From the NCBI RefSeq assembly GCF_018688095.1, contig NZ_CP061311.1:2023352-2055351 (forward strand): a DNA stretch of 32,000 nucleotides, read 5' to 3'. The stretch is from Polynucleobacter sp. AP-Titi-500A-B4. Its GTDB lineage: Bacteria; Pseudomonadota; Gammaproteobacteria; Burkholderiales; Burkholderiaceae. Positions 2,785 through 2,858 of this stretch are shown here, piece by piece; position 1 is the stretch's first letter; each line of letters begins with the position of its first letter. A program made the position numbers and the translations under genes. The notes below the pieces were generated by a model. That model saw only the letters and a list, made by a program, of their open reading frames with translations. It had not been told where the DNA came from and ran no database searches.

Positions 2785-2858
2785 AAATGAAAAAACCACC
2801 CGAAGGTGGTTTTGGTGTTTCTTGGTGGCCCGGGGCGGAATCGACCAGGGCCTAGGAT
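2785..2858 (-). repeat. tRNA-minihelix-like + terminator unit (copy 4, near-consensus)
   Basis: Minus strand: ATCCTAGGCCCTGGTCGATTCCGCCCCGGGCCACCAAGAAACACCAAAACCACCTTCGGGTGGTTTTTTCATTT. It lies 27 nt after the stop of the DoxX gene. Confidence 0.85.

Follow-up and report, generated by a model that had tools for sequence, protein, structure and literature searches.

What process places almost the same short sequence, the 3' end of a tRNA followed by a terminator, again and again on one strand of a bacterial chromosome? This question is raised by the stretch of 32 kb that was analysed here, the whole of which is called the window. A sequence-only reading of this DNA had described the repeat as a tRNA acceptor/T-loop minihelix ending in ACCA and fused to an intrinsic terminator, and had interpreted it either as an mRNA 3'-end module or as a SINE/MITE-like element. 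The repeat itself is real and is present at the positions reported for it. When the 24-nt core GGTCGATTCCGCCCCGGGCCACCA was searched with at most three mismatches, nine minus-strand matches were found in the window, against none in 100 shuffles. A repeat search of the window gave a nine-copy family of 86 nt, starting at 960, 1556, 2312, 2784, 4133, 23668, 25542, 26116 and 27223, and two copies of 300 nt that are 85% identical (5515-5814 and 27224-27523). From the repeat search and alignment, the copy at 6921 is a remnant that consists of the terminator only. In total, the window has eight short copies, two long copies and one truncated copy, and all of them lie on the minus strand, as had been claimed. 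They are given below with the gene cassettes that they adjoin, the reference unit and one long copy being divided into their parts.

960-1045, minus strand: short unit after the TPR lipoprotein cassette; the core is degenerate and CCTCCG replaces CCACCA
1556-1641, minus strand: short unit that comes after the 5' end of Usp, a gene in opposite orientation
2312-2397, minus strand: short unit after the DMT_6 cassette, with the 3' strand variant GGGGG
2785-2822, minus strand: terminator of the reference unit, AGAA + AAAACCACC TTCG GGTGGTTTT TT; leading end of the next (DMT_6) cassette
2823-2844, minus strand: reference-unit core TCGATTCCGCCCCGGGCCACCA, the same as the final 22 nt of tRNA-Phe(GAA); putative exchange segment
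2845-2869, minus strand: left arm of the reference unit, the hairpin remnant TAGCGTTAGACATCCT (anticodon-arm-like) + A + GGCCCTGG; trailing end of the upstream DoxX cassette
4133-4218, minus strand: short unit after the MFS transporter cassette, which carries both a double change to T:A and a C:C mismatch; the minihelix is missing from its predicted RNA fold
5515-5814, minus strand: long att copy, right junction (attR) of the 18-kb integrase island, made of a 215-nt island arm, a 45-nt tRNA-Phe part and a terminator
5515-5552, minus strand: terminator of this long copy
5553-5597, minus strand: its 45 nt of tRNA-Phe, from the anticodon loop to CCA
5598-5812, minus strand: its island arm
6921-6955, minus strand: decayed unit, of which the terminator is the only recognisable part
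23668-23753, minus strand: short unit behind the sulfite-oxidase and cytochrome c cassette; the 18-kb integrase island has its left junction (attL) here
25542-25627, minus strand: short unit after the Lipoprotein_15 cassette
26116-26201, minus strand: short unit after the DUF6803 cassette
27223-27523, minus strand: second long att copy, with a 45-nt tRNA-Phe core at 27262-27306; right end of a second, related, upstream island

Two further descriptions given in the sequence-only reading agree with what was found. Most units adjoin the stop codon of a minus-strand ORF (stops at 1043, 2396, 2885, 4201, 23752, 25639 and 26208), and a strong terminator follows each unit as a real hairpin-plus-T-run site; a scan of positions 1-7200 gave 19 such sites against 7.1 expected. 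The terminator of the reference unit is intrinsic and looks bidirectional. Its stem can indeed differ from copy to copy, for example GAGAGC/GCTCTC at 23668 and ATAGCCCA/TGGGCTAT at 5515.

The last 22 nt of the short units give the first part of the answer. The window itself has no intact tRNA-Phe gene, and the proteins encoded at 31433-31993 and 28475-29086, which were sought in order to reach tRNA-Phe outside the window, are not on record. The tRNA-Phe(GAA) gene is present in 25 related loci, with the sequence GGCCTGGTAGCTCAGTCGGTAGAGCAGAGGATTGAAAATCCTTGTGTCGGTGGTTCGATTCCGCCCCGGGCCACCA and the 3' end ...TTGAAAATCCTTGTGTCGGTGGTTCGATTCCGCCCCGGGCCACCA. By comparison with these 25 loci, the short units end in 22 nt that match the tRNA-Phe(GAA) end from the T-loop to CCA without a difference, and the long copies end in 45 nt that match the same tRNA equally well from the anticodon loop onward. 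Thus, the proposal that the unit is tRNA-derived was right, and the tRNA is tRNA-Phe(GAA). On the 5' side of this common part, the short units have an arm of the form tAGGAT-yAGAC-ATCCT, which is anticodon-arm-like, followed by GGCCCTGG. The latter is complementary to the acceptor 3' strand and similar to GGCCTGG, the 5' acceptor strand of tRNA-Phe, and it is as such a likeness that the 5' acceptor strand described before is borne out.

The units are not tRNA genes as such. ARAGORN called no tRNA or tmRNA gene in the window, Rfam gave no tRNA or tmRNA at gathering score there (the beta_tmRNA model reached 9 bits against a cut-off of 84), and the units in related loci likewise received no tRNA call. 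The only Rfam matches in the window are two Polynucleobacter-1 RNA motifs. The long copies were also considered as a tmRNA or another RNA gene. This candidate was rejected on the negative ARAGORN and Rfam results, the absence of a 5' acceptor strand, the fold of the 260-nt arm, which is no better than that of shuffles (z = -1.19), and the identity of the 3' 45 nt to the 3' half of tRNA-Phe.

What lies between the units is a series of cassettes and islands. Along the minus strand, the first feature is the right end of an island (the long att copy at 27223-27523), and three cassettes, an 18-kb island, five cassettes and a redoxin gene come after it. The cassettes form two minus-strand blocks, 23707-27261 (three) and 1000-5552 (five).

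26155-27261, minus strand: cassette with a 110-aa protein and DUF6803
25581-26154, minus strand: cassette with Lipoprotein_15
23707-25580, minus strand: cassette with a molybdopterin oxidoreductase and cytochrome c
4172-5552, minus strand: cassette with an MFS transporter
2823-4171, minus strand: cassette with MarR, a 78-aa protein and DoxX
2351-2822, minus strand: cassette with DMT_6
1595-2350: cassette with Usp, reversed
1000-1594, minus strand: cassette with a TPR lipoprotein
363-917: redoxin gene after the last cassette

The 18-kb island runs from the unit at 23668 (attL) to the long copy at 5515-5814 (attR), that is, from 23707 to 5553. Its cargo includes a NERD protein, an AAA ATPase, a DUF6641 gene and two recombinases of 424 and 188 aa. 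It also encodes two proteins that we take, by eye, to be radical-SAM proteins, and the DUF6641 gene adjoins a Polynucleobacter-1 RNA motif. The two recombinases are as follows.

15035-16309, minus strand: divergent tyrosine recombinase of 424 aa (NCBIfam XerA-type model, E = 1.9e-7, residues 127-413)
11477-12043, plus strand: catalytic-domain-only tyrosine recombinase of 188 aa (Pfam Phage_integrase, E = 4.7e-25; NCBIfam Xer and invertase models)

Besides its XerA-type match, which is weak, the 424-aa protein has a weak Pfam SAM-like match, and it has no relative in PDB. Its homologues, at 79-96% identity and in the same orientation, are found in three other arrays (L001, L004 and L096). The 188-aa protein recurs in L004, L095, L108 and L033. 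Most cassettes have no recombinase of their own. The 424-aa protein is a plausible candidate for the recombinase of the tRNA-Phe core, in which case it would act in trans on the integrase-less cassettes. The arms of the 18-kb island are of the short type at the left junction and of the long type at the right junction, and therefore the island recombinase must cross over within the common 22 nt, which lends plausibility to such a role in trans.

The arrangement in the window is repeated in related genomes. At least 120 related loci, one genome per species, were obtained from a scan with a pattern taken from the unit itself, and 122 loci were compared in all. The matches listed come almost entirely from Polynucleobacter and its freshwater relatives in the Burkholderiaceae or Alcaligenaceae, for example Zwartia and Sheuella. 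By nhmmer with the window copies as queries, 362 unit matches were found in the window and 121 of the 122 loci, and the matches lie on one strand only in the window and in 119 of these 121. In the loci that carry the tRNA gene, all the other unit matches (57 of 57) are on the same strand as tRNA-Phe and downstream of it. Tiles from the same contig are adjacent in seven of eight contigs. Neighbouring units lie a median of 951 bp apart, as measured over 226 intervals. Among the 210 cassettes no longer than 3 kb, 124 contain just one ORF of 60 aa or more. Of the ORFs, 233 point the same way as the units (74%) and 81 the opposite way. From the downstream, single-strand placement and the spacing, it follows that the units of the loci listed are an array at one locus and not a genome-wide 3'-UTR element. 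The abundance that had been ascribed to the unit as a 3'-end element thus becomes, in the loci listed, an abundance within one-orientation arrays downstream of tRNA-Phe. A solitary unit is found in the complete chromosome of ZE-4, 392 kb from tRNA-Phe.

Similarity between arrays ends mostly at units. In all-against-all comparison of the loci, 443 of 626 internal similarity ends (71%) fall within 150 nt of a unit, against 13% expected from length. Three clean cases of cassette presence or absence were found (L089 against L045, L106 against L068, L113 against L014). In L045 there is one junction, and L089 has the same flanks with an insert made of a terminator, one 150-aa ORF, an arm and a core, the 22-nt core being common to both flanks. 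In all three cases, the core overlaps both flanks and the insert has the order terminator-ORF-arm-core. These cases could alternatively be deletions by homologous recombination between repeats. Cassettes of the window are also found with other neighbours. The lake metagenome contigs L001 and L002 carry its sulfite-oxidase and cytochrome c cassette and part from it directly after ...CCACCAAGAA of the unit at 23668, and the Lipoprotein_15 cassette has differing neighbours in the window, L026 and L079.

A second sequence is associated with the cassettes, a palindrome (GTCCTTTWAAAGGAC) with these copies in the window.

5398-5467: palindrome pair TGTCGTTTAAAACGACA + TGTCCTTTTAAAGGACA, leading end of the MFS cassette
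2197-2266, 4051-4121, 5812-5836, 5962-5986, 8855-8876 and 12422-12443: further palindrome copies
13352-13376, 16412-16436, 23481-23505, 25469-25493 and 27521-27545: further palindrome copies

There are 188 palindrome copies in total; where a unit is in the same locus, 107 of 187 lie 50-300 nt after its CCA end. Palindromes are also enriched 8-fold at synteny breaks that have no unit.

The next question is to which cassette a unit belongs. Pairs of units that have only the upstream flank in common (n = 60) are alike up to about +3 past CCA and diverge beyond. In pairs with only the downstream flank in common (n = 33), mismatch is about 0.7 up to -24, similarity begins at -23, the sequences are identical from -11 to 0, and the similarity continues through the terminator. 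The terminator is thus linked with the downstream flank and not with the upstream flank. From these profiles it follows that the unit is a composite, the left arm going with the upstream cassette and the terminator with the downstream one. It had been taken for a single module, whereas left arm, core and terminator are three segments that recombine independently. Exchange inside the tRNA-identical core has probably produced this pattern, with the crossover in its T-loop/T-stem half. The terminator types of the units are also found behind genuine tRNA-Phe genes in other genomes, as is expected if an incoming element restores the 3' end of the tRNA.

Taken together, the units are very probably the att junctions of an additive genomic island, in which small cassettes and at least two larger integrase islands have accumulated at the 3' end of tRNA-Phe(GAA), a single gene in this Polynucleobacter-like betaproteobacterium of fresh water. 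The mechanism would be repeated site-specific integration into this 3' end. In a free, circular cassette, the attP-like site would be composed of the anticodon-arm-like hairpin remnant, GGCCCTGG, the 22-nt copy from T-loop to CCA and AGA(A), followed by the cassette's own terminator, often with two palindromes. A tyrosine recombinase would swap strands in the 22-nt core, probably in the T-loop/T-stem half, with either the tRNA gene itself or any earlier junction as the partner. After integration, the tRNA or the preceding cassette would be closed by the terminator of the newcomer, and the trailing arm and core of the newcomer would come to lie before the old terminator. Repeated rounds would build [tRNA-Phe]-[terminator-gene-arm-core]n on one strand throughout. 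The long copies would be the right ends of islands whose identity to the tRNA covers 45 nt, starting at the anticodon loop. What had been described as a minihelix would be the imperfect inverted repeat of the recombination core site, one arm being the acceptor 3' strand of the tRNA and the other a strand supplied by the cassette.

Does the minihelix also act as RNA? It was supposed that minihelix-ACCA in the cassette mRNAs is seen by RNase P, the CCA-adding enzyme or a synthetase and sets or protects the 3' end, a role that may even stand alongside that of a recombination site. Pairing into a helix that ends in ACCA is indeed possible, and consensus copies fold as hairpin, minihelix and terminator (z from -2.5 to -3.2). 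This arrangement is lost in the predicted folds of the diverged copies at 4133 and 23668, and one base of the T-loop is missing in 181 of 283 distinct units (64%). Covariation was counted in 115 distinct units outside the retrieval pattern. For the pair counts, each strand was anchored separately in a script and the MAFFT alignment of 103 units was not used, because it mis-registers the copies with a full T-loop. Conservation amounts to 81-93% in the 3' strand and to 55-81% in the 5' strand. Paired cells amount to 77%, against 75% when 3' strands are shuffled, a value equalled by 1 of 2000 shuffles, and doubly changed Watson-Crick cells number 21 against 12.4 expected, equalled by 19 of 2000. 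There is thus a slight excess of compensated cells, with cases in unrelated contexts (T:A with CCCCGAGCC; A:T with GGGTC), but most changes of the 5' strand give A:C, C:C or T:C mismatches and so break pairs. The compensatory change that had been noticed in the copy at 4133, the double change from C-G to T-A, is present there together with a C:C mismatch. The small excess could come from relatedness, quasi-palindrome correction or symmetric recognition by a protein.

The position of units relative to genes can be read in both ways. It is in favour of an RNA role that 208 of 267 short units follow an ORF of their own orientation, which stops about 50 nt ahead of the CCA end, and that the conserved TAG of the unit serves as the stop codon in about a quarter of cases. 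However, 50 units (19%) stand behind an oppositely oriented gene, and their left arm is similarly conserved (0.60 against 0.67 behind co-oriented ORFs). Moreover, the two strands of the helix come from different cassettes, the units of the loci listed are confined to tRNA-Phe arrays where they act as cassette boundaries, and neither Rfam nor ARAGORN gives a tRNA signal. We therefore regard a module for mRNA 3' ends as highly unlikely. The left arm is conserved across genera, and neither this conservation nor the compensatory excess is expected from a bare 'scar' model, which would need a functional arm that either binds a protein or folds as a strand. Most simply, GGCCCTGG ... CCGGGCC can be read as the inverted arms, two in number, that a tyrosine recombinase recognises in its core site around the exchange region. 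A further role as RNA or folded DNA may exist, but the explanation does not need it.

The view that the unit is a MITE/SINE-like element, which copies itself behind genes independently of tRNA-Phe, could draw on the many similar copies within a short stretch and on the solitary unit of ZE-4 far from tRNA-Phe. It is scarcely credible, because the copies have uniform orientation and are gathered behind a single tRNA gene, the unit is flanked neither by terminal inverted repeats nor by target duplications, and its parts are linked to different neighbours. The unit is also missing from plasmid and phage collections, where only the terminator hairpin has matches, and from viral contigs. A viral origin was rejected on these collections and on the viral contigs, in which no exact match is present; the terminator sequence alone matches unrelated phage and plasmid terminators.

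Integrons have a platform of IntI, attI and Pc, and attC sites with R''/L''-L'/R' boxes. The arrays resemble them in that the cassettes are small, mostly co-oriented, mostly one-gene and without their own recombinase, and in that an imperfect inverted-repeat site adjoins or overlaps the stop codon, as attC does. An integron-like system would be a special form of the explanation preferred here, in which attC-like units are recombined as folded single strands by a dedicated recombinase and tRNA-Phe is the attI-like point of entry. The cassette spacing, the share of single-ORF cassettes and the co-orientation given above would suit it. So would the stops of preceding ORFs, which overlap the site and peak at -47/-46 from the CCA end, where TAGGAT has its conserved TAG; 45% of these stops are TAG. 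Further points are the form of the site, an imperfect inverted repeat whose mismatch or bulge is conserved, and the small covariation excess. In three of the 25 loci, integrase homologues lie immediately upstream of tRNA-Phe and divergent to it. In the other 22 loci, the genes before the tRNA are core genes (hemA/prfA, a response regulator, groEL), so that an integron platform with an integrase divergent from tRNA-Phe was rejected. Possibly the three upstream integrases are part of a different kind of island, by which the 5' half of the tRNA is displaced, and such a displaced 5' half-gene, from a separate island class, is directly seen only in L009. Unlike integrons, the arrays have no IntI, attI, Pc platform or attC box consensus. 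The 188-aa protein is the only one hit by IntI-type models, and its 25-46 bits fall far short of the cut-offs of 265-435; the unit consensus has neither R''/L''-L'/R' boxes nor GTTRRRY. The site copies a tRNA end and is conserved far more in sequence than in structure, and a terminator opens every cassette, so that a common promoter cannot drive the array. We consider an integron-like system quite unlikely. A related proposal is tentative and has only a small chance of being correct: Polynucleobacter and its freshwater relatives in the Burkholderiales would have a tRNA-anchored cassette system that is independent of IntI, with an attC-like site of about 50 nt that mimics the acceptor/T minihelix. 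In such a system, the site might be read as a folded DNA strand, or as RNA in the cassette transcript, and a divergent tyrosine recombinase from co-resident islands would move the cassettes in trans.

To return to att junctions of an additive island, several known systems resemble the arrays. In Streptococcus thermophilus, CIMEs (cis-mobilizable elements) are integrase-less, att-flanked segments that accrete beside an integrative element; they are few and several kb long. The arrays similarly have att-bounded segments without integrase, lined up in tandem at a single chromosomal site with an element that carries one, but dozens of different one-gene cassettes per population. Tycheposons, which together with their remnants are found in Prochlorococcus islands, target specific tRNA genes, are 4-200 kb long and have hallmark integration and replication modules, and their islands contain scattered partial tRNAs from successive integrations (bioRxiv 10.1101/2020.12.28.424599). 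Integration at a tRNA gene, the pushing of older elements inward by newcomers, scattered partial tRNAs and tyrosine recombinases are the points of likeness, and tRNA adjacency, partial tRNAs and a tyrosine recombinase were observed in the array. However, most units of the arrays bound integrase-less one-gene cassettes.

The closest system is that of additive flexible genomic islands. These are integration hotspots, mostly at tRNA genes, in which a repeat of the 3' part of the tRNA stands behind each cassette (PMC4898812, PMC10872708, PMC7771536). They are known at tRNA-Phe and tRNA-Met in Alteromonas (PMC4898812) and in 'Ca. Actinomarinales' (PMC7771536), and additive islands with cassettes have been reported in Polynucleobacter (bioRxiv 10.1101/2022.03.25.485477, citing Hoetzinger 2017); the pairing of Polynucleobacter with tRNA-Phe was not found in the literature searched. 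As in the arrays, an intact tRNA stands at the head, direct repeats of its 3' end part cassettes of varying number and content, cassettes common to several genomes occur in different order, and the cargo includes transporters and stress or resistance genes. The repeat had not been recognised as a described family, whereas repeats of this kind, tRNA 3' ends that mark the cassettes of additive islands, are known (PMC4898812, PMC10872708, PMC7771536). There are also differences. Array cassettes are mostly single-gene (median 951 bp), each of their junctions retains some 25 nt of a conserved arm that comes from the cassette and can pair with the acceptor strand, and they bring a terminator, often with paired palindromes. 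Such site anatomy is absent from the cited descriptions (PMC4898812, PMC10872708, PMC7771536). Thus, additive islands with tRNA 3'-end repeats are already known, and the anatomy of the site is better resolved here than in the cited papers.

As for the earlier interpretation as a whole, tRNA origin and the potential to form a helix are retained, and the readings as mRNA module and MITE are not. This removes a false lead, that of a new tRNA-like module at mRNA 3' ends. The signature of arm, 22-nt tRNA-Phe core and terminator can be used to extract cassettes from genomes and metagenomes. Since one-gene cassettes are packed at an integron-like density and bring a conserved arm with them, these arrays are a good system for the origin and mobilisation of integrase-less cassettes at tRNA genes. 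For the organism, the finding explains how single accessory genes, such as those for transporters, redox proteins and stress proteins, are swapped at one hotspot in an abundant, genome-streamlined freshwater bacterium.

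A second repeat family accompanies the unit, the repeat that carries the 3′-end core of tRNA-Phe(GAA) up to its CCA. It is made of the palindromes GTCCTTTWAAAGGAC and GTCGTTTWAAACGAC, which are frequently paired with about 45 bp between them. Their positions are listed here with the other features discussed below; L numbers denote related loci, mostly from Polynucleobacter and related freshwater Burkholderiales.

Window 2197-2266, 4051-4121, 5398-5467, 5812-5836, 5962-5986, 8855-8876: palindromes GTCCTTTWAAAGGAC and GTCGTTTWAAACGAC
Window 12422-12443, 13352-13376, 16412-16436, 23481-23505, 25469-25493, 27521-27545: further copies of the palindromes
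Window 11477-12043, plus strand: 188-aa tyrosine recombinase, catalytic domain only
Window 16700-21590, minus strand: gene cluster in the island
Window 10050-10184 and 30959-31088, plus strand: Polynucleobacter-1 RNA motif (Rfam RF01718), 86-95 bits
L029 1229-1366 and L095 2703-2838: the same RNA motif, 86-95 bits

Among the related loci analysed, 188 palindrome copies were counted, and 107 of them sit 50-300 nt past the CCA end of a unit. These 107 mark the leading end of cassettes, the segments between two units, irrespective of gene orientation. Palindromes are also present at the flanks of the long att copies, which form the right ends of the islands. Where synteny breaks outside units in these loci, palindromes are 8-fold enriched; the divergence of L001 and L002, for example, begins directly after a palindrome. 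The palindromes could be sites for an accessory protein or a second recombination site. The 188-aa tyrosine recombinase, for which they are candidate targets, has the same size as a Fim-type invertase and was found again in the islands of L004, L095, L108, and L033 (50-94% identity).

In L009, a displaced 5′ half of tRNA-Phe, extending to the anticodon loop, precedes the intact gene by 3.3 kb (1022-1059 vs. 4302-4377). This half-gene points to another insertion class at the same tRNA, in which the 5′ half rather than the 3′ half is restored. Integrases located just upstream of tRNA-Phe in L108, L116, and L019 may be members of this class. Fragments resembling the 3′ half of a different tRNA, with the anticodon loop CTTTTAA and the end ...GCCCGACCCACCA, occur in the same regions (L112 ~4202, minus strand; L119 ~3686, plus strand), which suggests that there are islands targeting a second tRNA. 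Within an array in L079, just downstream of a unit, ARAGORN called a tRNA-Ser whose anticodon, ACT, is unusual (5320-5409, minus strand). Two kinds of insertion have no unit at their ends and show overlaps of 3-6 bp, one of 724 bp (L024 1704-2428 vs. L060/L015) and one of 876 bp (L015 1470-2346 and L072 6167-7044 vs. L118); these may represent insertion sequences, or else a different small mobile element residing in the same islands.

A lone short unit whose arm is of the island type was found, together with two palindromes, on the chromosome of ZE-4 at about 1.29 Mb (L115 4100-4660), 392 kb from the tRNA-Phe of that genome. Thus, the confinement of units to the tRNA-Phe locus is not absolute.

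The gene cluster at 16700-21590 encodes two proteins of 381 and 485 aa with CxxxCxxC motifs, radical-SAM-like as judged by eye. The cluster also has small ORFs and encodes a 412-aa protein containing two CxxCH haem motifs, and it may represent peptide-maturation cargo. A module of about 1.6 kb, in which a DUF6641 gene occurs together with the Polynucleobacter-1 RNA motif, is present twice in the window (8890-10508 vs. 29785-31417; offset ~20.9 kb, 81-96% identity), and this duplication indicates that two related islands lie in tandem. The RNA motif is contained in the integrative islands a few kb ahead of the long att copy, antisense to the units and divergent from the DUF6641 gene. From this location and orientation, the Polynucleobacter-1 RNA motif therefore appears to be a component of a mobile-island module.
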